This document shows positions 3,910 to 55,300 of a stretch of 64,000 bases of DNA, one piece after another. Source of the stretch: Acidobacteriota bacterium (GTDB lineage: Bacteria > Acidobacteriota > UBA890 > WLXD01); the NCBI GenBank assembly GCA_963666215.2, contig CAXWPL010000005.1:1312001-1376000 (forward strand), read 5' to 3'. The notes under the pieces were generated by a model, which saw nothing but the letters and a program-made list of their open reading frames with translations, was not told where the DNA came from and did not search any database. A program made the position numbers and the translations under genes. Within the stretch, counting starts at the first letter, position 1, and each line of letters opens with the position of its first letter.

Positions 3910-5033
3910 TGTGGGGGGCGAATACCCGTCCGCCCCGAAGTCACTCACCTTCCGTAGCGGTCGGTAGAGTCGGCCTCCTATGTGGGAACTACTCCGAACC
4001 ATCGTTCGCAGTGCCGTGTCGACTCTCCGGCCGAGGTGGGATCTGGCGCTAGAGAACCTCGCGCTTCGCCACCAACTCGCAGTACTCCATCGCCGGTCAA
4101 CCAAGCCGCAACTCGAAGACCATGACCGACTCTTTTGGATCTGCCTGAAGCATGTGTGGCCCAACTGGCGCGATGGGCTCCAACTGGTCCAACCTGCCAC
4201 CATCATCAAGTGGCATCGCGCTGGATTCAGGTACTACTGGCGCCGGAAAAGCCGACCCAAGGGAGGCCGACCGAGGCTCGCTCCCGAGCAGCGCAAGCTG
4301 ATCCGCGACATTTGGAACGTCAATCCGACTTGGGGCAAGCGGCGAATCCAGTCCGAACTCGCCAAGCTCGGCATCAGCGTTAGCGATTCCACCGTCGCCT
4401 CGTACAAGCCAAAGCGGCAAACGCCACCGTCGCAAACCTGGCGAGCCTTCCTCGACAATCACATCGAGGACATGGTAGCCATCGATTTCTTCACCGTGCC
4501 GACAGCGACGTTTCGAGTCCTATACGTCCTGATCATCATGTCGCACGACCGCCGCAGAATCATCCACTCGAACGTAACCGACTCGCCGTCCAGCGCCTGG
4601 ACCGCTCAGCAACTCCTCGAGGCGTTTCCCTACGACACCGCCCCTCGTTACTTACTCCGTGACAACGACACGAAGTTCCTCGGGGAGTTTGCCAGATGCA
4701 TCGAGTCGATCGGTATCGAAGAGGTCAAGACTGCGCCCCACTCACCCTGGCAGAATCCGTACTGCGAACGGCTGATTGGCTCCATGCGTCGTGAGTGCCT
4801 CGACCATGTCTTGGTCCTCAATGAGCAGCATCTCCGCCGAGTTCTCCGCAGCTACGTCGCCTACTACCATGATGCGCGCACTCACCAGTCGCTGGACAAC
4901 GACTGTCCCATGCCCCGTGCGGTCGAGCCGCCCGAGATGGGCGACGTAGTCGCGTTCCCGCTGGTCGGTGGATTACACCATCGATACCGTCGACGACTCG
5001 CGGCCTAGGACAGTTGGGTTTTCGCCCCCCACA
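3910..5033 (+). mobile_element. Insertion sequence with integrase-core transposase
   Basis: Inverted repeats cctgtggggggcgaataccc (3908-3927) and gggttttcgccccccacagg (5016-5035), 19/20 match; TGT...ACA ends. Confidence 0.8.
3980..5008 (+). CDS. Integrase core domain (rve/DDE) transposase
   Basis: AIDFF, LLRDND, PWQNPYCERLIGSMRRECLDH, GGLHHRY. Confidence 0.9.
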   Translation: MWELLRTIVRSAVSTLRPRWDLALENLALRHQLAVLHRRSTKPQLEDHDRLFWICLKHVWPNWRDGLQLVQPATIIKWHRAGFRYYWRRKSRPKGGRPRLAPEQRKLIRDIWNVNPTWGKRRIQSELAKLGISVSDSTVASYKPKRQTPPSQTWRAFLDNHIEDMVAIDFFTVPTATFRVLYVLIIMSHDRRRIIHSNVTDSPSSAWTAQQLLEAFPYDTAPRYLLRDNDTKFLGEFARCIESIGIEEVKTAPHSPWQNPYCERLIGSMRRECLDHVLVLNEQHLRRVLRSYVAYYHDARTHQSLDNDCPMPRAVEPPEMGDVVAFPLVGGLHHRYRRRLAA

Positions 5034-7300: not shown

Positions 7301-8107
7301 GGCGTTGTTGCACGATTCGAGAGCGAGCCTGGGCCGCTTTTCCCAGCCCTTCCGTCACGACACAGCGTAGGACTCTGGCCTGCCGAGCCCTGCCATCCGG
7401 TTAAGGATGTGACACCCGATCATGGCCTCTCTCGTCTGCGCCTTGCTGTTCCTCGCCTTCAGGTCGCGTCCGAGCAGTGACTTGTATCGGAAGAACCCGT
7501 TCTCAACGCGAGCCTGCTGTCGGTAACCCGACTCCTTCTGCCACTCTCGTCGTCCGACCTCACGAATCCTCTGAAGAGCCGCTTCTCGCTGCGCCCACGG
7601 GCCGTCCGTGGGCCCCGCGCACACCGCGGAGCGACGAGGTGGGATCACGATCATGAGGTCCTCTGTACCGGCCGCCCTGACCCGATCGTAGATCGACCTG
7701 TGGTCATAGGCCCCGTCTGCCGTGAAACGCTGGATTGGAACCTCAACCTGGGCAAGCAGATCAGGGAGGGTGGAGGCGTCGCCCTCGCTACTCGCCGTGA
7801 GCTCGGCCGCCACGATGAAGCCCTCGTCATCCACTCCGATGTGCAGCTTCCGCCACTCCCGGCGTTTCCTCGATGCCTTGTACCTATGCACATTCCACTC
7901 GCCAGAACCCAGGATCTTGAGCCCCGTGGAATCGACGACCAGGTGGATCGGGCCGTCGTGGGCTCGGTTCAGGGGTGGTACCTCGACGTCCTCGTTCCGG
8001 CGCGAGAGTGTGGTGTGGTCCGGGGCCTTGAGGCCCAGGCCCATCAAGCTCAGCAGCGAGTCCAGGAATCCCTCGGTCTGGCGAAGCGGCAGCCGAAAGA
8101 CGACTCG
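7301..8107 (-). mobile_element. IS5 family (IS903-like) element, 5'-truncated
   Basis: IR ggcgttgttgcacgattc 7301-7318; VDSTGLK, WRKLH and ADGAYD motifs; homologous to 20829-21797. Confidence 0.85.
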
Positions 8108-8297
8108 CCTGGTGTCGCACCTTCGCACAAAAGGCGACAAACTGTCGCCTTTCGCCCTCAGGGCACCAAGAGAATCCAGCAAATACGGGGACTTGCGGTC
8201 CTGCGTGTTGATGGAATGGACTCCTCCCGCGACTTGTAGCGGCATCTAAGATGTCAAGGTCGCACGAACCGTAACGTTCACATGAGAGGAGTCCGCT

Positions 8298-9333
8298 ATG
8301 CAGTCTACGACCATCGCCGTCGACTTGGCGAAAAACGTCTTGGAGATCGCCGTGTCCCACGTTCCCGGGAAGGTGGCCGAACGGTGTCGCTTGTCGCGGA
8401 AGAAGTTTCTGCGGTTCTTCGCGCAGCGCGAGGCTTCGCGTGTGCTTCTGGAGGCATGTGGTTCCGCCCACTTCTGGGCTGAGGAGATCCAGAAGCTCGG
8501 TCACGAGGTGGTGCTGCTACCGCCTCACCTGGTACGGCCCTACCGTCGCCGGCACAAGAAGACCGATCGCACGGATGCGAAGGCGCTGCTGGAAGCCGAC
8601 CGCAACGAGGAGATCGAGCCGGTGCCGATCAAGACCGTCGAGCAGCGCGGTGTGGGGGCCTTGCACCGGTTGCGCTCGGCCTGGATGGAGACGCGCACGG
8701 CACGGCTGAACGGCGTACGCGGCCTGTTGCGAGAGCACGGTCACTTCATCGCCCAGGGTGCCAAGAACGTAGTGCCCCGGGTACGAGAGCTGATCGCAGA
8801 TGACGCCAACGATCTGCCCGACCCCATGCGTTTGACCCTGGCGGAAGCATGTGAGGAGATCCGGGAGCTGGAGCGGCGCTGCGCGAGCGTTTCCAAGCAG
8901 CTCGAGGCACTGGCCCCGACGATGCCCGCCGTCGCGCATCTGCAATCTGTGCCCGGCATCGGCCCGCTCACCGCCACCGCGATGGTGGCGTTTGTCGGCG
9001 AGATCCACCGCTTCCCCTCGGCTCGACGCTTTGGATCGTACTTGGGCCTGACCCCGCGCGTGCACGCCACCGCCCAAAAGCGTCGGCTCGGCCACATCAG
9101 CAAACAAGGCGACGAGTACCTGCGGTGGCTTCTGATTCACGGCGCTCGGTCCTGTCTGTTGGCGGCCAAGAGAGTCCACAACCCAAGCCCTCTGTACACG
9201 TGGGCGCTGCAGGTCGTAGAAACGCCGAGGACACAACCGCGCCGCCGTCGCGCTGGCGAACAAGATCGCCCGCATTGCCTGGACGGTGTGGCGCGAGGAT
9301 CGAGACTTCACCATCGAAAGAAAAGCCGCGTAG
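8298..9333 (+). CDS. IS110 family recombinase (frameshift near 9220)
   Basis: VDLAK, LLEAC, KTDRTDA, VPGIG; shifted frame gives RGHNRAAVALANKIARIAW...TAG 9331-9333. Confidence 0.9.
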
Positions 9334-9370
9334 ATCCCCTTACTAGAACCCACCCAGTAACTGCTTCGAG

Positions 9371-9530
9371 AGACGTAACGATGGCGAACCGGTCGGACCG
9401 GGGCGGGGGAGAGCCGACGAAAGGCTGGCCTATTCAGGGCCGTGTGTCGATTGGCTCCCCGCCCGCGGAATCCATCCTGGCCAGGAGCATAGAGAAGCTC
9501 CACCAACGGGCCGAAGATACGACTGCAGTC
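9371..9530 (+). ncRNA. Putative bridge/seekRNA of IS1111-type element
   Basis: Downstream non-coding region with stems and internal-loop segments matching target (9419-9425, 9442-9449) and donor junction (9471-9476, 9515-9521); ends approximate. Confidence 0.75.
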
Positions 9531-9927
9531 AGACCTACCGTCTAGGATTCGCTCTCGAGCTCGCCCCGTGTTGATGGCTGCGAGAAAGCGCATCCCGTTG
9601 GCTGCGAGCGCAGTTTCCGGGATGGAGTGAGCTGAGGGCTTCGCGACCGCGGGAAAGCTAGGCCTTCTTCAGGAAGGGCGGCATCATCCCGCCGGAACGG
9701 CGGTCCGGGTGCGTGGTCCCGGCGGCGTGTTTGCGGTCGGAAGAGATGCGTGAGTCGGTGTAGGGCTTTGCAGTGCGGGCTCTGCTCTGATAGAGCAGGC
9801 CGACCAGAGACGGCGAGAGCCCGGGAAAGCGAAGTAGAAAACGCCCCGGGCTCTGCCCCAAACCGCAGCATTAGCTGCGCTTGCAGTATGGCAGAGAGTC
9901 GGGGTCGTCGTCGAATGGGAGGCGACG

Positions 9928-10323
9928 ATGCGACCGGACTACCGACTCTTCGACTGTGCTCGATGCCGTCGGCGTATCTCGCTGTGCTCGCACTGTGACC
10001 GTGGCCAGCGTTACTGCCGGGCTTGTGCTCTGGTGGCTCGTCGGGAATCGACTCGGGCGGCCGGCCATCGGTACCAGCGAAGCCTCCGAGGTCGGCATTG
10101 TCATGCCGCCCGTCAGGCCCGCTACCGTCGGCGCCAGCGCGAGCGGGCAGAGAAAGTGACGCATCAGGGTACCCCAGGCGGTACTTCGGGGAGGACACTG
10201 TGTCGGATCGAGACTCCGAGGCGCGAAGTGCGCTACGACCCGAGGAATCCGCGATGCATGCAGTGTGGAGAGGCCTGCCGAGAGTTTGTGCGAACGAGCT
10301 TTCGTCGTTGCCGACGGAGATAG
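9928..10323 (+). CDS. Cys/Arg-rich putative Zn-binding accessory protein of IS21
   Basis: CARC, CSHC, CRAC and CMQC motifs; GGAGG upstream of ATG. Confidence 0.6.
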   Translation: MRPDYRLFDCARCRRRISLCSHCDRGQRYCRACALVARRESTRAAGHRYQRSLRGRHCHAARQARYRRRQRERAEKVTHQGTPGGTSGRTLCRIETPRREVRYDPRNPRCMQCGEACREFVRTSFRRCRRR

Positions 10324-10327
10324 GGGC

Positions 10328-11836
10328 GTGATCGACGCACAGCTGCGCGGGGAGATCCGTCGTCTGTTCCTGGTCGAGAAGTGGAAAGTCGGCACGATCG
10401 CTCGACAGCTACAGCTGCACCCCTCAACCGTGCGCCGGGCGCTGGAGAAGTCCGGCGTGCTACCCCAGCAGCGACGAGGGAGGATGATCGATCCTTACCT
10501 GCCGTTCATCGAGCAGGTGCTCGGGACCTACCCACGACTGCCGGCGAGCCGTCTCTACACCATGGTGGTGGAGCGCGGCTATCCAGGAGGCCCGGATCAG
10601 TTTCGCCACCTGGTGGCCTCGATGCGACCGAAGCCCCAGCGCGAGGCGTTTCTCTCGCTGCGCATGCTGCCAGGAGAGCAGGCGCAGGTCGACTGGGGCC
10701 ACTTCGGTCGGCTCCGCGTCGGCCGGGCACATCGTCGGCTCTATGCCTTCGTCTTCGTGCTGTCGTTCTCGCGCACGGTCTTCGTGCACTTCACCCTCGA
10801 CACTCGTCTCGAAACCTTCTTGCACGCTCACCAGCTGGCCTTCCACTACGTCGACGGCGTCGTCAGGACCGTTCTGTACGACAACCTGCGAACCGCGGTG
10901 ATCGAGCGGCAGGGAACCGCGGTGCGCTTCCATCCCGTGCTGCTCGATTTCGCCAGCCACTACGGCTTCCTTCCCACCGTCGCCGCGGTGGCTCGGGGAA
11001 ATGAGAAAGGCCGCGTCGAGCGCGCAATCCGCTTCCTGCGAAGCTCGTTCTTCGGCGCCCGAACGGTGAGCGATTTGGATCGTCTGAATCGGCAGGTCCT
11101 GGAATGGTGCCAGAGGTCGCAGCGCAGACCCTGGCCGCAGGACCGACAGCGAACCGTGAAAAGCGCCCTGGCCCAGGAACGACCTCGACTGCTTGAGCTT
11201 CCCGGAGACGACTTCGAAACCGACCTGCGACTGGAGATCAAGGTCAGAAAGACGCCGATCGTGCGCTTCGACCTCAACGACTACTCGGTGCCGCACAGTC
11301 ATGTGCAGAGGACCGTCACGCTCCTCGCCAGCGAGCATCGGGTGCGGATCCTCGATGGCCAGGAGCTCCTCGCCGAGCACCCTCGCTCGTACTCCCGGGG
11401 CGAGCAGATCCTCGATCCTCAACACCTCGAGGAGCTCCTCGCTCACAAACGCAGGGCCCGACGACACCGGGGCTTCCATCGGCTGTTTTCCGCTGTGCCT
11501 CGATGCGAAGAGCTGATGCAGCAGCTCGCCGAGCGAGGCGAGAACCTCGGAACGCAGACCGCCGGCCTGCTCCGACTCCTGCGCCAGTACGGCCCCCAGC
11601 GACTCGACAAAGCCGTGCGCGAAGCGCTCCTGAACCACGCACCGCGATTCCAGTCCGTCCGGCTCCTACTCGAACGGCACCAGCGCGGCCTCGGTCAGCC
11701 CCCGGCTTTACCGGTGCCGCTCAGCCAGGAGCTCCAACAGCGAGATCTCTCCGTGAGACCGCACAACCTCGAGGACTACGACCAACTTGGAGGCAACGAC
11801 GATGGCCCGACCCAGGAAGAGTCCAACGATCCCTGA
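10328..11836 (+). CDS. istA: IS21 transposase IstA
   Basis: HTH N-terminus, PGEQAQVDWG, LYDNLRTAV, EKGRVER; probable GTG start at 10328. Confidence 0.93.
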   Translation: MIDAQLRGEIRRLFLVEKWKVGTIARQLQLHPSTVRRALEKSGVLPQQRRGRMIDPYLPFIEQVLGTYPRLPASRLYTMVVERGYPGGPDQFRHLVASMRPKPQREAFLSLRMLPGEQAQVDWGHFGRLRVGRAHRRLYAFVFVLSFSRTVFVHFTLDTRLETFLHAHQLAFHYVDGVVRTVLYDNLRTAVIERQGTAVRFHPVLLDFASHYGFLPTVAAVARGNEKGRVERAIRFLRSSFFGARTVSDLDRLNRQVLEWCQRSQRRPWPQDRQRTVKSALAQERPRLLELPGDDFETDLRLEIKVRKTPIVRFDLNDYSVPHSHVQRTVTLLASEHRVRILDGQELLAEHPRSYSRGEQILDPQHLEELLAHKRRARRHRGFHRLFSAVPRCEELMQQLAERGENLGTQTAGLLRLLRQYGPQRLDKAVREALLNHAPRFQSVRLLLERHQRGLGQPPALPVPLSQELQQRDLSVRPHNLEDYDQLGGNDDGPTQEESNDP

Positions 11837-12596
11837 CGAACCACTACGAGAGCTCGCCCGATCCCTCGGCTTCTACGCCCTCGTCGACGACTGGGGCACC
11901 TACCGAGAACAGCCCTGGCTCGAACAGCTGCTGCGCAAAGAAGAGGCCGAGCGCAAACGGCGCAGCCTCGAACGGCGCATCCGCACCAGCCGCGTCGGGC
12001 TCTTCAAGAGCATCGCCGACTTCGACTTCTCCTGGCCCCAGCGCATCGACCGCGAGCAGATCCAGGATCTGCTCACCCTCCAATTCCTCGACGACATCAC
12101 CAACGTCATCCTCCTCGGACCCAACGGTGTCGGCAAGACCATGATTGCCAAGAACCTCCTCTACCAGGCGCTGCAACGAGGGGCCACCGCCAGCTTCGTC
12201 ACCGCCTCCGACATGCTCAACGATCTCGCCGTCCAGGAAACCCCCTCGGCGCTCCAGAGAAGGCTCTCCAAATACACCCGACCCTCGCTTTTGGCAATCG
12301 ATGAGCTCGGCTATCTCTCCTACGACCACCGCCACGCGGATCTCCTCTTCGAGGTCGTCTCCAGGAGATACGGCAACAAGCCCATTCTTCTCACCACCAA
12401 CAAGCCCTTCGCCGAATGGGCCGAGGTCTTTCCCAACGCCTCCTGCGTCGTCACTCTCGTCGATCGACTCACCCACCACGCCGAGATCGTCAAGATCGAG
12501 GCTAACTCCTATCGCCGCAAGGAGGCCAAGGAGGCTGCTGAAAAAAAGGCCAAGGACCGCGCCAAAAGGCGGAGCGCAGCACGACGACGCTCATGA
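11802..12596 (+). CDS. istB: IS21 helper ATPase IstB
   Basis: FDF, GPNGVGKT, IDELGY, DRLTHH. Confidence 0.93.
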   Translation: MARPRKSPTIPDEPLRELARSLGFYALVDDWGTYREQPWLEQLLRKEEAERKRRSLERRIRTSRVGLFKSIADFDFSWPQRIDREQIQDLLTLQFLDDITNVILLGPNGVGKTMIAKNLLYQALQRGATASFVTASDMLNDLAVQETPSALQRRLSKYTRPSLLAIDELGYLSYDHRHADLLFEVVSRRYGNKPILLTTNKPFAEWAEVFPNASCVVTLVDRLTHHAEIVKIEANSYRRKEAKEAAEKKAKDRAKRRSAARRRS

Positions 12597-12949
12597 CCCG
12601 AAGCCACTATCGGCGCCAGCTCCTCCGCCTCTATCGACTCCTTCCCGACACCCCGCACCGCTTCCACCACGGCGACCGCGTCATCGTCGACCAGCTCTTC
12701 GACCAAGACCTGCCTCTCACCGTCCTCCAGGCCGCCCTCCTCCTCGGCTCCGCCCGACGCGCATGCCGAGATCCGCGCCTACCAAAGCTCCAGCCCATCC
12801 GATCCCTCGCCTACTTTCTCCCCATCCTCCGAGAACTCCCCACGACGCCACCCCCCGAGGGGTACCTCGACTATCTGCGCCACACCCTGAGTCACGCCTC
12901 GCGGGGACAAAAAACCGACTCGCAGCCAACTAAGTGCGCTTTCTCGTAG
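12593..12949 (+). CDS. Small accessory protein inside IS21 right end
   Basis: ATGA overlap with istB stop; IRSLAYFLPILREL; stop lies within the right IR. Confidence 0.6.
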   Translation: MTRSHYRRQLLRLYRLLPDTPHRFHHGDRVIVDQLFDQDLPLTVLQAALLLGSARRACRDPRLPKLQPIRSLAYFLPILRELPTTPPPEGYLDYLRHTLSHASRGQKTDSQPTKCAFS

Positions 12950-13017
12950 CCGGTAACACCCCGGAGGCAATGACCATGTGATCGCCCGAACTTCCTGAAG
13001 AAACAAAGGAGGAGTCC

Positions 13018-13039
13018 TTGACAGAGGAGTCCAGATACG
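13018..13039 (+). promoter_or_regulatory. -35 half of IS1111 circle-junction promoter
   Basis: TTGACA 13018-13023; joining to the left end gives a 17-nt spacer then TGGAAT (8212-8217). Confidence 0.6.
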
Positions 13040-13119
13040 TCTTTCACGGTGAGGTGCGACAACACAATTCGAGCTCTGAGCCGCTGATCCACCGGGCGAC
13101 TGTAAGATGTTGCCAACTC

Positions 13120-15795
13120 ATGGCTCTAGAACCAGGCTCCCGCCTCGGTCCCTACGAGATCGTCGAGCTGCGCGGCAAGGGCGGCATGGGAGAGGTGTAC
13201 CTGGGCCGCGATACACGCCTGGAGCGGGATGTCGCCATCAAGGTGCTACCTGAGGAGCTCGGGCAGGACACGCTCTACCGCCAGCGGCTGGAGCGTGAAG
13301 CGAAGAGCCTCTCGCAGCTGAGCCATCCCCACATCTGTACCCTCCACGACATTGGCAGCGAAGACGGTGTCGACTACCTGGTCATGGAGTACCTCGAGGG
13401 CGAGACCCTCGAGGACCGGCTGCGAAAGGGCGCCCTGCCGCTGGATGAGGTGACGGCGATCGGATCGCAGATCGCCGAGGCCATCGATGCCGCCCATCGT
13501 CACGGAGTGGTCCACCGCGATCTCAAGCCCGGCAATGTGATGTTGACTCGCGAGGGAGCCAAGGTGCTCGACTTCGGCCTCGCCAAGGGAGTCCAGGTCG
13601 GTGCCCTTAGCGGGAGCACGCAGACGCCGACCATCACCCAGCCACTGACCAGCGAAGGCTCGATTCTCGGCACGCTGCAATACATGGCGCCCGAGCAGCT
13701 CGAAGGTAAGGAGGCAGACACTCGCAGCGACATCTGGGGCCTTGGCGCCGTGCTTTACGAGATGGCCAGCGGGGCAAGGCCGTTCGAGGGGACCTCTCAG
13801 GCCAGCTTGATCGCGTCGATCATGACCGGTCGGGTGCGCGCTCTGTCGGAGCTCCAGCCGCTCGCGCCGGCCCGCTTCGACTGGGTGATCGAGCGCTGTC
13901 TCGACAAGGATCCCGATCGGCGTTGGCAGTCGGCGCGCGATGTGGCGCTGGAGCTGGGCGGCCTCGACCAGGGGACCGAGACGGCGGCGCCTACAGGAGG
14001 CACCGCCGACCGGGCCCTGCGTCCGCGAGTCGCCGCCCTGGCCGGGGGCCTCGTTCTCCTGGTCGGGCTGGTGATCGGCTTCGCGCTTCCTCGCGGCTCG
14101 AGCGTGCCGACGGTCGAGAGCGGCGCGGAGGAGTGGACCGTGACGACCCTCGACATCGCGGCCGACGAGGGATTCATGACGATCTCGGCTGACGGGCGCT
14201 CCCTGGTATTCCCGCAACCGCATGCCGATGGCGGATCGATCCTCGCTCGCCGCCCCCTCGATTCGCTGTTCTCACAGGCGATCCCGGGAACGGAGGGAGC
14301 AACCGGTGCCCTTTTCTCCCCCGACGGCGGACATCTGGTCTTCGCCGACAGAAGTGGCAAACTGAAAACAATCGCTGTCGAGGGAGGAGGAGCCACGACA
14401 CTCGTCGCGGAAAACGTCTTTCCTGGGATGTGGGCAGAGAACGGCTCGATCTACTACGGTCGCGTACCGCCGGGAACGAACCCGACCTCCGCCGAGATCT
14501 GGCGAGTCCCGGCTGCCGGCGGCGAGCCCGAGCGCATCGGTGACGGCATGCCAACCGATCTCCTTCCCGGGGGACGCACCCTCCTGGCGACGGTGACTCC
14601 GGATCGAAGAGACGGGTTCTGGGCCGACATCGTCGCCATCGATCTGGAGACCGGCGAGAGCCGCGTGCTCACCCCCGGCGTCCTGCCCTTGTACGTCGAG
14701 CCGGGGCTGATGGCCTTCTATCGAAGCGGAGCGCTGTGGGCCGCTCCCATCGACTCCTTGACCGGAGAGCTTGTGGCACCGCCTCGACAAGTCGAAGCCG
14801 AGGTGGCTCGCGCGCCAGGAGTGCCGGTCGACGTCGGCCGTTTCGCCGTCAGCCGGTCCGGGGATCTCGCCTACGTGCGCGGGCAGGTAAGCGACCAGTC
14901 TCGGCTGGTGTGGGTGAACCGCGGCGGCGGCGAGGTCGAGCCGGTGGCTCCTGAGATCAAGGCCTTCGCCGTTCCCAGGCCATCCCTCGATGGCCACAGG
15001 ATCTCGGTCCACTCGCGAAACTCGGCCGGCGACGGCAACGAGCAATGGGCCCTCGACCTCGCCACCGGCTCGTGGAGCCGACCGGCTCAGACGGGCTCCA
15101 CTTCGGTCGCGACAGAGATCCCGCCAGACGGCAAAGAGATCTTCTTCGTGGCGAATCGCGTCGACGACTACGCACAGGTGTTTTTCCAGCCGGCCGATCG
15201 TAGCGCCCCGGCGCAGAGGCTACTGCCCTCCGAGCAGGCTCAATCCTATTTCGGCGTCTCCGCCGACGGGCGCTGGGTGTTGCTCTACCACTTCTTCGAG
15301 GAGGGGTTTGTCGCCCTCGACCGCAGTAGCGGCGAGGTACGCTCTGTGGTCGACGACAGTGTCTTCGTTCGCTCGGGAGGCTTCCACCCCGATGGGGACT
15401 GGATCGCCTACGCCGGATTCGACCCCGTCGACGCTATGTCGCAGCTGTGGCTGATCCCCTTCCCGGGCCCAGGGGAGCCGCGCCAGCTCACCTTCGAAGG
15501 CGGCCAGGAAGCGGCATGGTCCTCTTCGGGAGACGAGATCTTCTACCGCGGCCCGACCCACATGATGACCATCCCGATCGAGAAGAAGGGCAGTGAGTTG
15601 GTCATCGGGCGGCCTGAGACCCTGTTCGAAGATCGGTTCCGAAGGGGTCCGAACCTAGGCATCATCAACTACGGTGTGCATCCGGACGGCCGCTTCCTGA
15701 TGGTCGAGGCCGCTGAGGACCAGGAGGAAAAAGTGATCCTGGTCCAGAACTGGCGGGCCAAGGTGCTCGAGATGTTCTCCGAGGGGGGCTCGTGA
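13120..15795 (+). CDS. Ser/Thr protein kinase with TM helix and TolB/PD40-like beta-propeller
   Basis: GKGGMGEVY, VAIK, HRDLKPGN, DFGLAK, YMAPE; repeated FSPDG-type motifs. Confidence 0.92.
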   Translation: MALEPGSRLGPYEIVELRGKGGMGEVYLGRDTRLERDVAIKVLPEELGQDTLYRQRLEREAKSLSQLSHPHICTLHDIGSEDGVDYLVMEYLEGETLEDRLRKGALPLDEVTAIGSQIAEAIDAAHRHGVVHRDLKPGNVMLTREGAKVLDFGLAKGVQVGALSGSTQTPTITQPLTSEGSILGTLQYMAPEQLEGKEADTRSDIWGLGAVLYEMASGARPFEGTSQASLIASIMTGRVRALSELQPLAPARFDWVIERCLDKDPDRRWQSARDVALELGGLDQGTETAAPTGGTADRALRPRVAALAGGLVLLVGLVIGFALPRGSSVPTVESGAEEWTVTTLDIAADEGFMTISADGRSLVFPQPHADGGSILARRPLDSLFSQAIPGTEGATGALFSPDGGHLVFADRSGKLKTIAVEGGGATTLVAENVFPGMWAENGSIYYGRVPPGTNPTSAEIWRVPAAGGEPERIGDGMPTDLLPGGRTLLATVTPDRRDGFWADIVAIDLETGESRVLTPGVLPLYVEPGLMAFYRSGALWAAPIDSLTGELVAPPRQVEAEVARAPGVPVDVGRFAVSRSGDLAYVRGQVSDQSRLVWVNRGGGEVEPVAPEIKAFAVPRPSLDGHRISVHSRNSAGDGNEQWALDLATGSWSRPAQTGSTSVATEIPPDGKEIFFVANRVDDYAQVFFQPADRSAPAQRLLPSEQAQSYFGVSADGRWVLLYHFFEEGFVALDRSSGEVRSVVDDSVFVRSGGFHPDGDWIAYAGFDPVDAMSQLWLIPFPGPGEPRQLTFEGGQEAAWSSSGDEIFYRGPTHMMTIPIEKKGSELVIGRPETLFEDRFRRGPNLGIINYGVHPDGRFLMVEAAEDQEEKVILVQNWRAKVLEMFSEGGS

Positions 15796-16186
15796 GCGCG
15801 GGCCTTGTCGCCTTTGGTGGCGGAGTGCGACAAGTATCGCGATCGGCCTATAAGGAGAAGGATCTCGCAGAGTCCCGCGAGGCAGGAGGTTCGTCGTCGC
15901 GCGGATCTACCCGAGCGGGATTCTGCTAGACCTGGCTTGAGCGGAGGCCGCCAGACGAGCGGTTGTGTATGGGGTTATCAGCCTCGTTGGCAGGCTGTGC
16001 TGCGCGCGACGCGCCCCAGGTCGAGGGTTGTGAGGTAGTTCCAGAGGTGCACTGGGTTGCGGTCAGGCGCCTGCGCGGCCCCTGGGAGGTCCACCGGCGT
16101 CTCGATTTTGGGTTCGGAGCCACCGCGGGCACACCTCCGCCTTGTCCGCGGCGGGACCGGGAGCGCGGGAAGAGAAAGGCGTGGGA

Positions 16187-18286: not shown

Positions 18287-18763
18287 GTGCAGTACCGCTG
18301 GCATCCGCAATACGGGCAGGAAGTCGTTGTCCACGGCAAGAAGAAAGGCAGGGGCGGGGTCTATCGATGTCAAGTCAACGATGACGAGACGCGCGCGAAG
18401 CTCGAGATTCCCAAATGGATGTTTGATCGGGAGCTGTGCTCTCGGATGCAGGCAACGACTTCGCCCTACGTACGTTGGGAAGCACTTGTCGATTGTTGGC
18501 AATTACTCAGCGACACCCGTCAGCAGGAGGGTCCGGGCGCGATAGAAAATCGTCTTCCACCGACTACGGAGGGAAACGATGCGACATCGACGCGCCCCAC
18601 GGGTTACCTACCAAGCCGAGCTCTTCGCGACCGAGACCGATCGGCCGAACTGGCGAGAGCTGCCCGCGACGACTCGCGAAGCGGTGATCTCTCTGCTGGC
18701 GCAGATCCTGACAGAGCAGAGCCCACCGTCATCGCCGAGCCTCGCAAAGGAGGGGAAGCATGA
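18287..18763 (+). CDS. Small accessory ORF of serine-recombinase element
   Basis: YRWHPQYG...EIPKWMFD..C motif; frame open back to the element boundary near 18242. Confidence 0.5.
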   Translation: MQYRWHPQYGQEVVVHGKKKGRGGVYRCQVNDDETRAKLEIPKWMFDRELCSRMQATTSPYVRWEALVDCWQLLSDTRQQEGPGAIENRLPPTTEGNDATSTRPTGYLPSRALRDRDRSAELARAARDDSRSGDLSAGADPDRAEPTVIAEPRKGGEA

Positions 18764-18767
18764 GTGA
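18579..18767 (+). CDS. Small helical ORF overlapping recombinase start
   Basis: QAELF...WRELPATTREAVISLLAQIL; SD ggaggg; overlaps 18760 ATG. Confidence 0.5.
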   Translation: MRHRRAPRVTYQAELFATETDRPNWRELPATTREAVISLLAQILTEQSPPSSPSLAKEGKHE

Positions 18768-20744
18768 GAAGCTCACGGTTCGCCATCTCGAGCGTCGGGC
18801 GCTGATCTATGTGCGCCAGTCGTCGCACCACCAGCTGGTGCACAACACCGAGAGCCGGCGTCTGCAGTACTCGATGGAGCAGCGCGTACGGGACCTGGGC
18901 TGGCAAGAGACCGAGGTCATCGATGAGGATCAAGGGCTTTCCGCGACATCGACACACGGTCGCACCGGGTTTCAGCGCTTGGTGGCCGAGGTTTGTCTAG
19001 GGCGGATCGGTGCCGTAGCAGCGATCGAGGTGTCCCGTTTCGCGCGCAATAACCGCGACTGGCATCAGTTGGTCGAGATGTGCGCCATGGTCGAAACGTT
19101 GCTCATCGATCACGACACGATCTACGATCCTCGTCGAGCGAACGATCGATTGCTGCTGGGTCTGAAAGGCACGATGAGCGAGTACGAGCTGGATCTTCTG
19201 CGCCAACGCTCGGTGGAGGCTCGGTGGGCCAAGGCCAAGCGCGGCGAGTTGGTGATCGAGGCCCCAGTGGGTTTCGTGAAGACCGCGGATCAACGCCTGG
19301 AGAAGGACCCTGACCTTCGCGTGCAGAAGGCCATCGAGCTCGTCTTCACCAAGTTCTTCGAGTTGGGGACCGCTCGGCAGGCCGGGCTGTGTTTCTCGAA
19401 AACGGTGTGGATCTACCCGCGAAACGGCGCGGCGTCGCGGGCTGGGAAACCTGGTGGAAGCGGCCGGCCTATCACGCCGTTATCAGCATCCTGAAAGAGC
19501 CGACCTACGCCGGTGCCTACGCCTACGGCCGTACGACGTCCAAGACCGAGCTCGTCGATGGATCCCTGCGCAAAAAAAAGGGTCGTGCGCAAGCCACTTG
19601 ACGAGTGGACGGTGTTGATCCCCGATCATCACGAGGGCTACATTGGGTGGGATCGGTTTCAGAAGGTCCAACAGATGCTCGATGACAATGTCGCTCAATT
19701 CCAGTCAGCTCGCCGTCGTGGGGCGCCGAAACGGGGAGCTGCACTGCTTGCAGGACTCTTGCGTTGCGGTCGTTGCGGTCGCAAGTTGATGGTCGGTTAC
19801 TCGGGTAAGAATGCCGCGGTCCCTCGGTACCTGTGCCATCGCGCCCGACTCGACCAGATGGCTCCGAAATGCATCTCCTTTGGCGGGCTGTCGGTGGACC
19901 AAGCCGTTGCGGAAGAGATTCTCAAGGTGGTGCGACCCTGCGCGGTCGAGGCTGCGAGGCTCGCGGTTTCGCAAGAGGCACTTCGACGCCAGGAGCGGAT
20001 CCAAGCTCTGTCCATGGAGTTGGAAGCAGCCCACTACGCGGCGGAGCTGGCCCGCCGTCGATACAACGCGATGGATCCCGACAATCGTCTCGTTGCGGGC
20101 GAGTTGGAGCGGCGCTGGGACGAGGCCTTGCAGAAGGTACGCGAGCTGGGAAGAAAGCTCGAGCAAGGATCCTCGGGCGAAGAATCGAGTGCACCGGACC
20201 CCCTCGATTTGGCAGATCTCGAGCTCGACCTCAACCGGGTGTGGAATGCGCCGGAAACGGACCCGCGTCTCAAGAAGCGTGTCCTCCGAGCTTTGATCGA
20301 AGAGATTGTCGTCGACATCGACGCTGCACAGAGTGAGGTCACCCTCGCCATTCATTGGAAGGGAGGGCTGCACAGCGAGCTGCGTATCCCACGGCGCCGC
20401 AGGGGCCAGAGCGCATCGCACACGAGTCCCGACGTGGTCGATGCGATCCGCGAGCTGGCTCGCATCTGCAAAGACCGCTTGATCGCCGGCTACCTCACCC
20501 GTAACGGCCTTCTCACCGCACGCGGGAATCGATGGTCTGCCCTGGCCGTGACCTCCTTGCGCAACAACCGTGGCATACCGGTGTACTCGCCCGCCATACG
20601 CCAGGCCGAAGGATGGATGAATCTGACCGCCGCGGCAGCCCATCTCGGTGTCGCGGCGAAGACGCTACGACGGGCTGCCGAGCGGGGCGATGTACCGGCG
20701 AAACACCCGCTCAAGGACGGTCCATGGGTCTTTAACTGCAGCGA
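18760..20744 (+). pseudogene. Large serine recombinase (frameshifts near 19385 and 19575; truncated by IS5)
   Basis: YVRQSS catalytic motif, SRFARN, recombinase domain YAGAYAYGR, Zn ribbon CGRCG, coiled coil, C-terminal HTH. Confidence 0.85.
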
Positions 20745-21855
20745 GGCGTTGGTGCATGAATCGACTTTGGCCTCGACGGTAGCATCGGTTCGGATGCCGG
20801 TGATTCCGGAGATCGAGGGGGCAGCGCCATGACCGTACGCAAGTCGAGCCGAGTCAACCGCGAGTACAAGACAAAGTACAGAGTCAGGAGGAGGGAGTAC
20901 GAGCGTGGCCTCAGGAGCCGTGGCGATGTCACGATCTGGCTCAGCGAGGCGGCGATCGCCGCGTGGACACCACCGAAGAACGGTCTGCGCGGAGGCCAGC
21001 GACGGTACTCGAACCTCGCGATTCTGACCGCATTGACGCTGCGCGTCGTCTTCCGGCTGCCGCTACGCCAGACCGAGGGATTCCTGGACTCGCTGCTGAC
21101 CTTGATGGACCTCGAGCTCGAGACCCCTGACCACACCACACTCTCGCGCCGGAACCAGGACGTTGAGGTGCCGCCCCTGACCCCAGCCCACGACGGCCCG
21201 ATTCACCTGGTCGTCGACTCGACTGGGCTCAAGATCCTGGGTTCAGGCGAGTGGAATGTGCACAAGTACAAGACATCGAGAAGACGCAGGAACTGGCGGA
21301 AGCTCCACATCGGAGTGGATGACGAGGGCTTCATCGTGGCGGCTGAGCTCACGGCAAGCAGTGGGGACGACGCCTCCACGCTCCCTGCTCTCCTCGACCA
21401 GATCGAGGTTCCAATCCGGCGTTTCACGGCAGACGGGGCCTATGACCACAGGTCGATCTACGATCGGGTCGGGGCGGCCGGTACCGAGGACGTCATGATC
21501 GTGATCCCACTTCGTCGCTCCGCGGTGTCCGCTGCGCCCGCAGATGGCCCGTGGGCGCAGCGAGAAGCGGCTCTTCAGAGGATTCGCGAGGTCGGACGGC
21601 GAGAGTGGCAGAAGGAGTCGGGATACCGACAGCAGGCTCGCGTGGAGAACGGGTTCTTCCGATACAAGTCACTGCTTGGGGACAGCCTCAAGGCGAGGCA
21701 CAGGCAGGCGCAGACGAGAGAGGCGATGATGGGGTGTCACATCCTCAACCAGATGGCCGAGCTCGGAAGGCCACAGTCCTACGCAGTAGTCTCGTGAGGG
21801 AGGGGTCGGGAAAGCGGCCCCGACTCGCTCCCGGGTTGAATCGTGCAACAAAGCC
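20745..21855 (+). mobile_element. IS5 family (IS903-like) element
   Basis: IR ggcgttggtgcatgaatc / gaatcgtgcaacaaagcc. Confidence 0.9.
20829..21797 (+). CDS. IS5 family transposase
   Basis: YERGLRSRGDVTIW, VDSTGLK, ADGAYD, YRQQARVE. Confidence 0.9.
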   Translation: MTVRKSSRVNREYKTKYRVRRREYERGLRSRGDVTIWLSEAAIAAWTPPKNGLRGGQRRYSNLAILTALTLRVVFRLPLRQTEGFLDSLLTLMDLELETPDHTTLSRRNQDVEVPPLTPAHDGPIHLVVDSTGLKILGSGEWNVHKYKTSRRRRNWRKLHIGVDDEGFIVAAELTASSGDDASTLPALLDQIEVPIRRFTADGAYDHRSIYDRVGAAGTEDVMIVIPLRRSAVSAAPADGPWAQREAALQRIREVGRREWQKESGYRQQARVENGFFRYKSLLGDSLKARHRQAQTREAMMGCHILNQMAELGRPQSYAVVS

Positions 21856-22029
21856 CTGTCTTTCAGATAATAGATTGGCTCTGCCATTGCTGCTTGCTCC
21901 TGTCTGCGCGTGTCTCTTTTGCTCGCGCTTCTATTATCTCACGCCGATTACCGGTTCTTGGGTGTTATCGGCGGTCATAAAGTGCGGGATTCCGGCTGTG
22001 TAGTCGCGCTTTTGGTTTCATCCTTCGCG

Positions 22030-52335: not shown

Positions 52336-55300
52336 ATGATGGCTACGAACAACGGTCCCGCCGGTCTCCCACCTGGCGCGTCCCTTCGAGCTCGCCGCAT
52401 CGCCCGCCAGTTCGTTGGGCCGGTTGGGAGATTTCTTCATGTGGAAGCGTCGAGCGGGATCATCTTGCTGATCACAGCGTTGGTCGCCCTTGTCTGGGCG
52501 AATTCTCCGTGGGCGTCCGCTTACGATCACCTCCTTCACACCTCAATTTCCCTGGGCTTCGGCGAGTATTCCTTTTCGCACACAGTCCACTTCTGGATCA
52601 ACGATATATTGATGGTCGTTTTCTTTTTTGTGGTCGGGCTCGAGGTCCGACGGGAGATTTTCGAGGGCGAACTCTCTGTGTTGATGGCTGCGAGAAAGCG
52701 CATCCCGTTGGCTGCGAGCGCAGTTTCCGGGATGGAGTGAGCTGAGGGCTTCGCGACCGCGGGAAAGCTAGGCCTTCTTCAGGAAGGGCGGCATCATCCC
52801 GCCGGAACGGCGGTCCGGGTGCGTGGTCCCGGCGGCGTGTTTGCGGTCGGAAGAGATGCGTGAGTCGGTGTAGGGCTTTGCAGTGCGGGCTCTGCTCTGA
52901 TAGAGCAGGCCGACCAGAGACGGCGAGAGCCCGGGAAAGCGAAGTAGAAAACGCCCCGGGCTCTGCCCCAAACCGCAGCATTAGCTGCGCTTGCAGTATG
53001 GCAGAGAGTCGGGGTCGTCGTCGAATGGGAGGCGACGATGCGACCGGACTACCGACTCTTCGACTGTGCTCGATGCCGTCGGCGTATCTCGCTGTGCTCG
53101 CACTGTGACCGTGGCCAGCGTTACTGCCGGGCTTGTGCTCTGGTGGCTCGTCGGGAATCGACTCGGGCGGCCGGCCATCGGTACCAGCGAAGCCTCCGAG
53201 GTCGGCATTGTCATGCCGCCCGTCAGGCCCGCTACCGTCGGCGCCAGCGCGAGCGGGCAGAGAAAGTGACGCATCAGGGTACCCCAGGCGGTACTTCGGG
53301 GAGGACACTGTGTCGGATCGAGACTCCGAGGCGCGAAGTGCGCTACGACCCGAGGAATCCGCGATGCATGCAGTGTGGAGAGGCCTGCCGAGAGTTTGTG
53401 CGAACGAGCTTTCGTCGTTGCCGACGGAGATAGGGGCGTGATCGACGCACAGCTGCGCGGGGAGATCCGTCGTCTGTTCCTGGTCGAGAAGTGGAAAGTC
53501 GGCACGATCGCTCGACAGCTACAGCTGCACCCCTCAACCGTGCGCCGGGCGCTGGAGAAGTCCGGCGTGCTACCCCAGCAGCGACGAGGGAGGATGATCG
53601 ATCCTTACCTGCCGTTCATCGAGCAGGTGCTCGGGACCTACCCACGACTGCCGGCGAGCCGTCTCTACACCATGGTGGTGGAGCGCGGCTATCCAGGAGG
53701 CCCGGATCAGTTTCGCCACCTGGTGGCCTCGATGCGACCGAAGCCCCAGCGCGAGGCGTTTCTCTCGCTGCGCATGCTGCCAGGAGAGCAGGCGCAGGTC
53801 GACTGGGGCCACTTCGGTCGGCTCCGCGTCGGCCGGGCACATCGTCGGCTCTATGCCTTCGTCTTCGTGCTGTCGTTCTCGCGCACGGTCTTCGTGCACT
53901 TCACCCTCGACACTCGTCTCGAAACCTTCTTGCACGCTCACCAGCTGGCCTTCCACTACGTCGACGGCGTCGTCAGGACCGTTCTGTACGACAACCTGCG
54001 AACCGCGGTGATCGAGCGGCAGGGAACCGCGGTGCGCTTCCATCCCGTGCTGCTCGATTTCGCCAGCCACTACGGCTTCCTTCCCACCGTCGCCGCGGTG
54101 GCTCGGGGAAATGAGAAAGGCCGCGTCGAGCGCGCAATCCGCTTCCTGCGAAGCTCGTTCTTCGGCGCCCGAACGGTGAGCGATTTGGATCGTCTGAATC
54201 GGCAGGTCCTGGAATGGTGCCAGAGGTCGCAGCGCAGACCCTGGCCGCAGGACCGACAGCGAACCGTGAAAAGCGCCCTGGCCCAGGAACGACCTCGACT
54301 GCTTGAGCTTCCCGGAGACGACTTCGAAACCGACCTGCGACTGGAGATCAAGGTCAGAAAGACGCCGATCGTGCGCTTCGACCTCAACGACTACTCGGTG
54401 CCGCACAGTCATGTGCAGAGGACCGTCACGCTCCTCGCCAGCGAGCATCGGGTGCGGATCCTCGATGGCCAGGAGCTCCTCGCCGAGCACCCTCGCTCGT
54501 ACTCCCGGGGCGAGCAGATCCTCGATCCTCAACACCTCGAGGAGCTCCTCGCTCACAAACGCAGGGCCCGACGACACCGGGGCTTCCATCGGCTGTTTTC
54601 CGCTGTGCCTCGATGCGAAGAGCTGATGCAGCAGCTCGCCGAGCGAGGCGAGAACCTCGGAACGCAGACCGCCGGCCTGCTCCGACTCCTGCGCCAGTAC
54701 GGCCCCCAGCGACTCGACAAAGCCGTGCGCGAAGCGCTCCTGAACCACGCACCGCGATTCCAGTCCGTCCGGCTCCTACTCGAACGGCACCAGCGCGGCC
54801 TCGGTCAGCCCCCGGCTTTACCGGTGCCGCTCAGCCAGGAGCTCCAACAGCGAGATCTCTCCGTGAGACCGCACAACCTCGAGGACTACGACCAACTTGG
54901 AGGCAACGACGATGGCCCGACCCAGGAAGAGTCCAACGATCCCTGACGAACCACTACGAGAGCTCGCCCGATCCCTCGGCTTCTACGCCCTCGTCGACGA
55001 CTGGGGCACCTACCGAGAACAGCCCTGGCTCGAACAGCTGCTGCGCAAAGAAGAGGCCGAGCGCAAACGGCGCAGCCTCGAACGGCGCATCCGCACCAGC
55101 CGCGTCGGGCTCTTCAAGAGCATCGCCGACTTCGACTTCTCCTGGCCCCAGCGCATCGACCGCGAGCAGATCCAGGATCTGCTCACCCTCCAATTCCTCG
55201 ACGACATCACCAACGTCATCCTCCTCGGACCCAACGGTGTCGGCAAGACCATGATTGCCAAGAACCTCCTCTACCAGGCGCTGCAACGAGGGGCCACCGC

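Follow-up and report, generated by a model that had tools for sequence, protein, structure and literature searches.

The closest described counterparts of the element analyzed here are insertion sequences of the IS1111 group, which are guided to their targets by a non-coding RNA. In the account of Siddiquee 2024 (PMC11187229), the IS1111 seekRNA carries a match to the top strand of the target 5′ of a match to the bottom strand, and the two matches overlap in the target. According to the same paper, the seekRNA of ISKpn4 was validated experimentally and co-purifies with its transposase, while a short 82-nt ISEc11 seekRNA, which includes the target matches, suffices for transposition. Promoters at the joined ends are described there for the family, and ISEc11 and ISXne4 are presented as a natural case of redirection by guide replacement. 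In IS621, as described by Durrant 2024 (PMC11208160), a core common to donor and target is read by all four guides of the bridge RNA. Both papers describe IS1111 elements as having subterminal inverted repeats of 7–17 bp and short terminal extensions. Table 1 of a review (PMC13604230) places insertion just 5′ of CG for ISKpn4 and ISPst6 (both AA/CG) and for ISPa11 (GG/CG), and also gives the target of ISPa25 (the slash marks the point of insertion, here and below).

Here, we describe an element from a 64,000-nt stretch of Acidobacteriota DNA (the window). It is an ordinary, though broken, new member of the IS1111 group and belongs to the RNA-guided system described in 2024. Positions 9377–9538 very probably encode the guide RNA of an insertion sequence that occupies 8209–13037, with target guides in a loop and a DEDD transposase that would insert at GYGTGT/CGYCTTTC; we infer the donor side. 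Sequence comparison establishes the homology of the RNA to the seekRNA region of ISKpn4 and ISPa25, the covariation of its stems, the covariation of guides with flanks (14 lineages) and the exact empty site.

Boundaries of the element and its empty site

The whole element lies on the forward strand at 8209–13037 and measures 4829 bp, or 1434 bp without a nested IS21-family element and the 5-bp duplication that the latter created. Its left end begins with the terminal extension TGATGGAAT (8209–8217, +), which is TGATGNNAT in most relatives by sequence comparison, followed by the left subterminal inverted repeat GGACTCCTC (8218–8226, +). This repeat forms a perfect 9-bp inverted repeat with its right counterpart GAGGAGTCC (13024–13032), which together with the terminal extension AGATA makes up the right end (13024–13037, +). 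The terminal extensions thus measure 9 nt on the left and 5 nt on the right, as expected of IS1111 ends. This layout was set by relatives with uninterrupted targets and by the published ISPa25 site. The original prediction had taken gatgga and AGATACG as the two ends. The first is indeed present at 8210–8215, but the left end itself starts one position earlier, at 8209; of the second, found at 13033–13039, the last two letters (CG) lie outside the element and belong to the target.

The empty site is preserved in public sequence data. In one contig each of runs X3 and X9, position 8208 is joined to 13038, with exactly 4829 bases missing, 0 ambiguous letters, and 40 nt (X3) or 39 nt (X9) on the shorter side of the joint. 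The uninterrupted target is therefore ...CCTGCGTGT/CGTCTTTCACGG..., with the empty site GCGTGT/CGTCTTTC, matching the 14-bp target GCGTGT-CG-TCTTTC that had been reconstructed beforehand. The target is not duplicated on insertion (0 letters are counted on both sides of the joint), and CG is part of the target. Since public contigs were compared over 8000–13200 at 90% likeness, the contigs of X1, X3, X8 and X9 are read for presence only. Joints with short sides (22–29 nt, for example 9535 to 13018) probably come from relatives and were set aside. No circle junction was found among the joints listed for 8000–13200 in these contigs.

Joining of the two ends would create a promoter, with TTGACA (13018–13023, +) as the −35 element, a 17-nt spacer, and TGGAAT (8212–8217), within the left terminal extension, as the −10 element, preceded by the TGn of an extended −10. 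This arrangement, foreseen in the original prediction, is present in the joined end sequence, and a TTG lies at equal distance from the end in relatives, ISPa25 and ISKpn4. By analogy with published relatives, the junction promoter would drive the guide RNA.

Transposase and condition of the copy

The transposase gene (8298–9333, +) is matched by the Pfam families PF01548 (DEDD_Tnp_IS110, E = 1.7e-9) and PF02371 (Transposase_20, E = 6.7e-25), and the D, E, D and D positions of its product align with those of relatives. The closest named relatives of the protein are ISPa25 (48% identity) and ISKpn4 (44%). Its C-terminal motif, GLTPRVHATA, is a TA variant of GL-P----S/T-G, in which most relatives have SSG; TA is given by Siddiquee 2024 (PMC11187229) as an occasional variant of the IS1111 nucleophile motif. 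The reading frame is broken by an extra T at 9217, which was recognized against a 99.8% identical copy and is missing in single contigs of X8 and X9. The corrected frame stops at the TAG at 9331–9333.

An IS21-family element (istA and istB, with Pfam matches; 9569–12958, +; 3390 bp) is nested in the 3′ non-coding region and is flanked by the 5-bp duplication CCCCG (9564–9568 and 12959–12963). Three identical 3390-bp copies of this IS21 are found in the genome, and one contig of run X1 contains the joint 9563 to 12959, free of IS21. With a frameshifted transposase gene, and with the IS21 lying between the RNA gene and the right end, this copy is most likely not active by itself, judging from its sequence. 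Neither the RNA gene nor either end of the element is damaged.

BLAST found no second copy in the own genome, only a 65% relative (C5:1578955–1580032). In collections holding one genome per species, the sole near-identical copy occurs in a metagenome-assembled genome of a Thermoanaerobaculia bacterium (G001). That copy encodes an intact transposase, which scores 304 bits with the NCBIfam model NF033542 ("IS110 family RNA-guided transposase"; cut-off, 140). It carries a different IS21 insertion at the transposase start codon, but its 3′ non-coding region is uninterrupted. This downstream region is 309 nt long (4033–4341 of locus L001) compared with only 89 nt upstream, as in IS1111 elements. 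A protein search found relatives of the transposase in 32 of 401 genomes of the phylum, and a metagenome scan added four closer relatives with 87, 85, 70 and 63% identity.

A conserved RNA downstream of the transposase gene

The non-coding regions 3′ of the transposase genes of relatives can be aligned, with conserved stems and hypervariable loop segments. A covariance model (R1) was built from 17 relatives, the check on homologous non-coding regions that had been proposed with the original prediction. It delimits the long form of the seekRNA, or bridge RNA, gene to 9377–9538 (+; 162 nt) with a score of 156.6 bits, a match that is expected by construction because the near-identical G001 copy is in the training set. 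Outside the training set, R1 matches the 3′ non-coding regions of ISPa25 (L098, 2002–2159; 102 bits, E = 1e-23) and ISKpn4 (L099, 1990–2146; 70 bits, E = 1e-15), in both cases directly downstream of the transposase gene, and it also finds more distant relatives.

RNAalifold predicts 32 base pairs from the 17 sequences, 11 of which are kept through changes on both sides. In an alignment of 39 matches (36 distinct rows), which was fitted to the model and so leans towards the structure, 92.1% of the cells are paired, versus 80.9% in shuffles, and 21 of the 32 pairs show compensatory change on both sides among the 36 distinct sequences. None of 500 shuffles reaches the observed pairing values, and controls in which the alignment was slid have 32–51% of cells paired. 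The conserved G·U pairs are consistent only with the forward strand read as RNA. Folded singly, the sequence gives a z-score of −2.47. A long-range outer stem (GTC.GAC with GTC.GAC) was also considered and rejected, as RNAalifold on the 17 sequences prefers a covarying local hairpin together with helix 1 (described below).

The RNA would fold into a long stem, in which an internal loop is topped by a small hairpin. The stem GAGCCGA (9411–9417) pairs with TTGGCTC (9451–9457) and closes the internal loop, within which lies the hairpin GGCC-TATTCAG-GGCC (9427–9441). On re-extraction, these stems and the hairpin, along with the loop segments, the sibling repeat and the copies of the element ends discussed below, were all found where the original prediction had placed them. 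By analogy with published relatives, the RNA would be made and bound by the transposase; among the public runs listed as containing this DNA, none is recorded as RNA.

Target guides covary with insertion sites

Two segments of the internal loop match the target. The 5′ segment GAAAGGC (9419–9425, +) is predicted to pair with the top strand, G plus YCTTTC, right of the crossover. The 3′ segment GTGTGTCG (9442–9449, +) reads in the same direction as the left part of the target with CG and would pair with the bottom strand, on the left side of the crossover and over CG. Each guide contains the one wobble that had been claimed for it (U·G at the second base of GTGTGTCG and G·T in GAAAGGC). The top-strand match stands 5′ of the bottom-strand match, and the two overlap at the G of CG. 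An IS1111-type RNA-guided element with the first-loop segments as target guides had been predicted, and this is borne out, in the order published for IS1111 (PMC11187229). Because the loop segments would pair with both target strands, the DEDD transposase would insert the circularized element at GYGTGT/CGYCTTTC, without duplication.

The relationship between guides and flanks was tested at 31 sites representing 14 guide lineages. The 5′ guide was taken as the 11 nt adjoining the hairpin, and the 3′ guide as the 11 nt that run up to the closing stem. Rows without a flank were left out (L012, L023, L025, L027, L094 and others), two rows entered by hand took the place of the duplicate window and G001 rows, and one such row that of the mis-parsed L042. 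Cognate guides and flanks at the 31 sites match on average at 7.29 of 8 positions for the 5′ guide and 5.71 of 7 for the 3′ guide, compared with 4.60 and 3.26 in 403 non-cognate pairings and 4.30 and 2.86 with shuffled flanks. In fixed register, shuffled flanks match both target guides at least as well as the window flanks do with a frequency of 0.0008 (200 flank shuffles per site, 31 sites). The match between guides and flanks in the window is more than chance. Individual sites fit less well, namely L016 (6/8) and L026 (2/8) for the 5′ guide and L013 (4/7), L017 (4/7) and L041 (3/7) for the left (3′) guide; the right flank of L027 also fits its guide badly.

The original prediction was to be given up if other copies sat at unrelated sites or if the loops did not covary with targets, and it withstood this test. 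The G001 copy is flanked by ...GGCTATGT/ and /CGCCTTTCTGGGTGAGAGGCGACA, at the site CTATGT/CGCCTTTC. Its right flank, GCCTTTC, pairs perfectly with GAAAGGC, while its left flank agrees with the 3′ guide GTGTGTCG at only 5 of 7 positions. In relatives, the loop segments change with the targets. The 5′ guide of the window element, GAAAGGC, corresponds to right flanks GCCTTTC or GTCTTTC, that of L041, GGAAAGAC, to GTCTTTC, that of L042, AAAAGTGC, to GCACTTTT, and that of L012, ATAGGAAGC, to GCTTTCTAT. The near-identical copies at two independent sites and the three close relatives thus all sit in the same palindrome family at TGT/CG, in keeping with the site- and orientation-specific insertion of IS1111 elements, although only a T is available of the left flank of L012. 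A sister element, L043 (70% identity), has guides TAACAAC and TTGCAGCG and occupies the site CTGCAG/CGTGTTGTTAGG.

A tree of the transposases unites the four elements that target the palindrome (support 90/87), places L043 as their sister (100/100), and leaves further attC-like lineages outside. Midpoint rooting was used for drawing only, and partial or broken rows (L027, L044, L024, L097 and L093/94) were left out. This topology suggests a switch from attC-like targets to the palindrome in the closest clade. The equivalence of the guides extends to ISKpn4, in which the segments TAACAATCA and TTTGAACG share model-alignment columns with the guides of the window, TTTGAACG being aligned to GTGTGTCG. 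These two segments match the published ISKpn4 target CGGCTTGAA/CGAATTGTTAG (PMC13604230, Table 1), and TTTGAACG matches its CTTGAA/CG.

It could be argued that the matches are due to chance, or that they are repeats at the DNA level, such as internal copies of the ends to which the transposase binds, and that RNA plays no part. The matches are short (6–8 nt), the genome has 65% G+C, and Rfam 15 gives no match at E≤1 over 7900–13400, all of which would fit such a view. It is nevertheless highly improbable given the 21 of 32 pairs with compensatory changes, the strand-specific G·U pairs, the covariation of guides with flanks across 14 lineages, and the homology of the RNA to the region that yielded the purified ISKpn4 seekRNA (Siddiquee 2024, PMC11187229). 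Furthermore, the internal copies comprise only the tips of the element, without the subterminal repeats expected in a protein site.

How far the target guides account for specificity is a separate matter. When wobble is tolerated over the 16 guide positions, the real site scores 15 of 16, and a genome scan returns 1311 sites with at least 14, three of which reach 16; the best 40 listed all score at least 15. With so many sites once wobble is counted, the 14–16 nt as read here cannot be the whole story, and stricter pairing or something more sets specificity.

The target palindrome

The target is a 27-bp palindrome, TGT/CGTCTTTCACGGTGAGGTGCGACA, with 24 of its 27 bases to the right of the element (13038–13061, +) and the left 3 bases at 8206–8208. 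The pattern TGTCGYCTTT-N(8–13)-CGACA occurs 4 times in the own genome and 14 times in G001, with 0 occurrences of the reversed control, and every match is exactly 27 nt long. To the left of the element, three palindromes follow one another (at 8113, at 8143 and the target itself), and one follows the kinase gene, at 15806. The one at 8143 contains the sibling repeat TGTCGCCTTTC (8143–8153). The neighboring IS5-family copy is truncated at 8108, adjoining the first palindrome. A BLAST search with the flanks detected no repeats in the own genome; the palindrome family emerged only by pattern search.

Six of eight G001 palindromes examined lie 48–126 nt upstream of open reading frames that start with MALE.G..LG.YE.... 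These frames probably represent paralogous Ser/Thr kinase genes, a label based on their N-terminal likeness to the Pkinase protein of the window (13120–15795). A similar gene start lies downstream of L041. The original prediction had envisaged an element programmed against the repeats of another element. IS4321 and IS5075 are IS1111 members aimed at the terminal repeats of Tn21-family transposons, and the proposal resembles them in having an IS1111 member target the repeat of another element. A repeat family does exist, in the form of the 27-bp palindromes, but no mobile element owning it was found. Unlike the targets of IS4321 and IS5075, the palindromes are not the ends of a recognizable transposon, and most of those examined precede kinase genes. 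We also considered whether the TGTCGC repeats could mark the termini of an element resembling Tn7, Tn402 or a MITE, which would have cut the neighboring IS5. This was rejected, as no other end, transposase or missing part of the IS5 was found and the copies precede kinase genes. Good unoccupied palindromes are present in the own genome (for example, CCTGCGTGT/CGCCTTTAC at C5:1490153), which fits an element that is no longer moving.

The CG dinucleotide had been regarded as the core of a variant, a reading that does not hold. CG is confined to the target, on the right side of the crossover, whereas the donor left end begins with TG, and there is no duplication. ISKpn4, ISPst6 and ISPa11 already appear in the review table (PMC13604230) with insertion 5′ of CG, and the use of CG is thus not a new variant. 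The ISPa25 copy that we examined sits at GACCTTGAG/CG. The GTTRRRY motif that marks targets of the IS1111-attC group, which lie within attC sites of integrons, is absent from the targets of both the window and G001, while flanks of the TTGTTAG type occur in the sister and outgroup lineages L043, L013, L015, L017, ISPa25 and ISKpn4.

Candidate donor guides

A second pair of segments resembles the ends of the element. The candidate 5′ donor guide TCCATC (9471–9476, +) is complementary to GATGGA of the left end (8210–8215), and the candidate 3′ donor guide AGATACG (9515–9521, +) combines AGATA, the tip of the right end, with CG, the first two bases of the target. Both lie in a multi-branch region around the second stem-loop, where they would be placed to read the left and right tips, a role proposed by analogy with published relatives.

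The alternative is that only the first loop is a guide, as in a strict seekRNA, and that TCCATC and AGATACG are parts of the scaffold. TCCATC would then be the 3′ strand of a helix, AGATACG would belong to a conserved protein-binding block, and the transposase would read the ends through the subterminal inverted repeats. Several observations agree with this. CCATC of TCCATC pairs within the RNA with GATGG at 9380–9384 (helix 1), and this helix covaries (one pair is GC in 27 sequences, CG in 5 and UA in 1; another is GC in 22, AU in 5 and GU in 4). The block GGCCGRAGATACGACTGCAGTC is conserved far past 7 nt, AGATACG has one mismatch to the joined ends (its C against AGATA/TG), and the 82-nt ISEc11 seekRNA is enough for movement (Siddiquee 2024, PMC11187229).

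A pure scaffold would not be expected to follow the ends of the element, which both segments do. The candidate 3′ segment varies in step with the tip of the right end, with at least four sequence classes among the lineages (AGATA, ATATA, ATATG in ISKpn4, and ATACA), and it ends in the first two letters of the flank (CG, GG, TG or TT), with the exception of relA and relB, where the flank is CA and the guide CG. The left ends start with a dinucleotide that is one position off (TG, GA, TA and TA; GG in ISKpn4). The candidate 5′ segment follows differences in the left end (GGG with CCC in L044, GCA with UGC in L097, and A with U in relB, L018 and L021), and its complementarity to the left end reaches 7–10 nt in relatives (L042, L013 and L016), beyond helix 1. 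On this evidence the scaffold-only reading is unlikely, although it carries some weight. Covariation with the ends, set against the internal helix and the short ISEc11 seekRNA, leads us to regard the second pair of segments as candidate donor guides, which is their likely role. The donor match claimed in the original prediction for the second loop is supported by covariation with the ends.

A further idea, which we put forward as speculative and rather doubtful, concerns the clade that includes ISPa25 and ISKpn4. Donor and target may lack a common core in this clade, with both 3′ guide segments ending in the dinucleotide of the right flank; the "donor" 3′ guide would therefore be written for the junction of right end and flank in the inserted form, and not for the joined ends. 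This could imply a geometry of strand exchange, or a control over the direction of excision and insertion, unlike that of IS621, and the GATGG–CCATC helix may be a mimic of the left end that gates donor binding.

Comparison with known systems and implications

The window element is most similar to ISPa25 and ISKpn4. The RNA lies in the same place and is recognized by the same covariance model, insertion occurs directly 5′ of CG without duplication, and the order of the guides is the same, with the top-strand match first. ISPa25 also shares the left end, TGATGGAAT-GGACTCCTCC, and the arrangement of both ends. Unlike these members of the IS1111-attC group, the window element targets the 27-bp palindrome TGTCGYCTTT...CGACA, which lacks GTTRRRY and is not attC. 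Its nucleophile motif has TA (GLTPRVHATA) and not SG, its host is an environmental, Thermoanaerobaculia-like genome, and the copy is broken.

As with ISEc11 and ISXne4, close relatives (the window element, L041, L042 and L012 versus L043) keep the stems and change the two target-matching segments with the target. They differ from that case in that the guides track sequence variants within a single palindrome family and, in one instance, show an apparent jump from an attC-like target; these changes are known from sequence comparison. IS621, as described by Durrant 2024 (PMC11208160), likewise combines a DEDD recombinase with one non-coding RNA, four segments for both strands of the target and, probably, the donor, and a promoter at the joined ends. 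In that description the RNA of IS621 lies 5′ of the recombinase gene, in the left end, whereas the window RNA (9377–9538) is 3′ of the transposase gene. The order of strand matches in the window RNA is reversed, and its donor segments would lie in a multi-branch region and not in a simple internal loop. In contrast to the IS621 core, the window element has no core common to donor and target: CG is present in the target, the joined ends would have TG, and CG terminates both 3′ segments.

RNA guidance of this kind was already known from work in 2024. A minor lead of a different sort is offered by the palindromes that precede paralogous Ser/Thr kinase genes. The present analysis adds a well-delimited IS1111 member from Acidobacteriota, and the covariance model connects elements from the environment with ISKpn4 and ISPa25, which have been studied by experiment. 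It also provides a small natural series of reprogrammed guides, in which four variants track the variants of one 27-bp palindrome and a sister lineage is found at attC-like sites. This guide series is useful for the choice of orthologues and for guide design in bridge RNA and seekRNA tools.

The element ends and the seekRNA

The left subterminal repeat of the IS1111-type element, GGACTCCTC (window 8218-8226), forms a perfect inverted repeat with GAGGAGTCC (window 8286-8294), which overlaps the ribosome-binding site just upstream of the transposase ATG at 8298. The motif GGAGGAGTCCG ahead of the start codon is conserved in relatives of the element and in ISPa25. In read-through transcripts, pairing of the left repeat with GAGGAGTCC might mask the ribosome-binding site.

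Within the seekRNA gene, GATGG (window 9380-9384) pairs with CCATC (9472-9476) of the candidate donor guide, and this helix covaries across relatives. GATGG here matches the left end of the element in sense; the helix could be either a structural stem or a mimic of the left end. In the lineages compared, the 3' segments of both the target guide and the candidate donor guide end in the two letters with which the right flank begins (CG, GG, TG or TT), and the first two letters of the left end differ from that flank dinucleotide at one position.

Related lineages and their insertion sites

Two related IS1111-type lineages, relA and relB, have transposases with 57% and 54% protein identity, respectively, to that of the window element (C5:1578955-1580032 in the same genome, G000, and loci L003, L004 and L006-L010). 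Their insertion site, CTCGGA/CACGCTCCTAG (slash, insertion point), lies in a REP-like repeat that is matched by the guides CTAGGAGCGT and CTCGGACG of these lineages and is also present in uninterrupted form beside the elements. In a further set of relatives (L016, L027, L026, L086, L087, L096 and L018), some show a poor fit between guide and site and others have changed right-junction bases: L096 has TG in place of CG, L086 has lost 2 nt and L018 reads AGATC-TG. Decay of the copies or off-target insertion may account for these cases.

Neighboring mobile elements

Both known copies of the IS1111-type element, the second being in genome G001, are interrupted at different points by an IS21-family element of 3390 bp, which lies in the 3' non-coding region of the window copy (9569-12958) and at the transposase start codon of the G001 copy (L001, 1-3002). 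This element is present in three identical copies in G000 (also window 52679-56068 and C5:1525713-1529102).

Two neighboring ORFs, encoding a resolvase N-terminal domain (window 18760-19494) and recombinase and zinc-ribbon domains (19513-20832), may together represent a large serine recombinase that has been split. IS elements are abundant in this region, with rve at 3980-5008 and IS5 at 20829-21797.

The 27-bp palindrome family

The target of the window element belongs to a family of palindromes, TGTCGYCTTT...CGACA, found at window 8113-8139, 8143-8169, 8206-8208 plus 13038-13061 (split by the insertion) and 15806-15832, and at C5:1490061-1490153. A partial IS5-family transposase gene (window 7301-8108, minus strand), lacking ∼296 bp of its 5' part, is truncated at 8108, directly next to the first palindrome; C5 carries full-length relatives, among them one at window 20745-21856. 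A pattern search returned 4 palindromes in G000 and 14 in G001, always 27 bp in length, while the reversed control pattern gave 0 matches in this search. Of the eight palindromes examined in G001, six precede paralogous Ser/Thr kinase genes by 48-126 nt; these genes are labeled as such by N-terminal likeness to the Pkinase protein of the window (13120-15795). The palindrome may be an operator or leader element.
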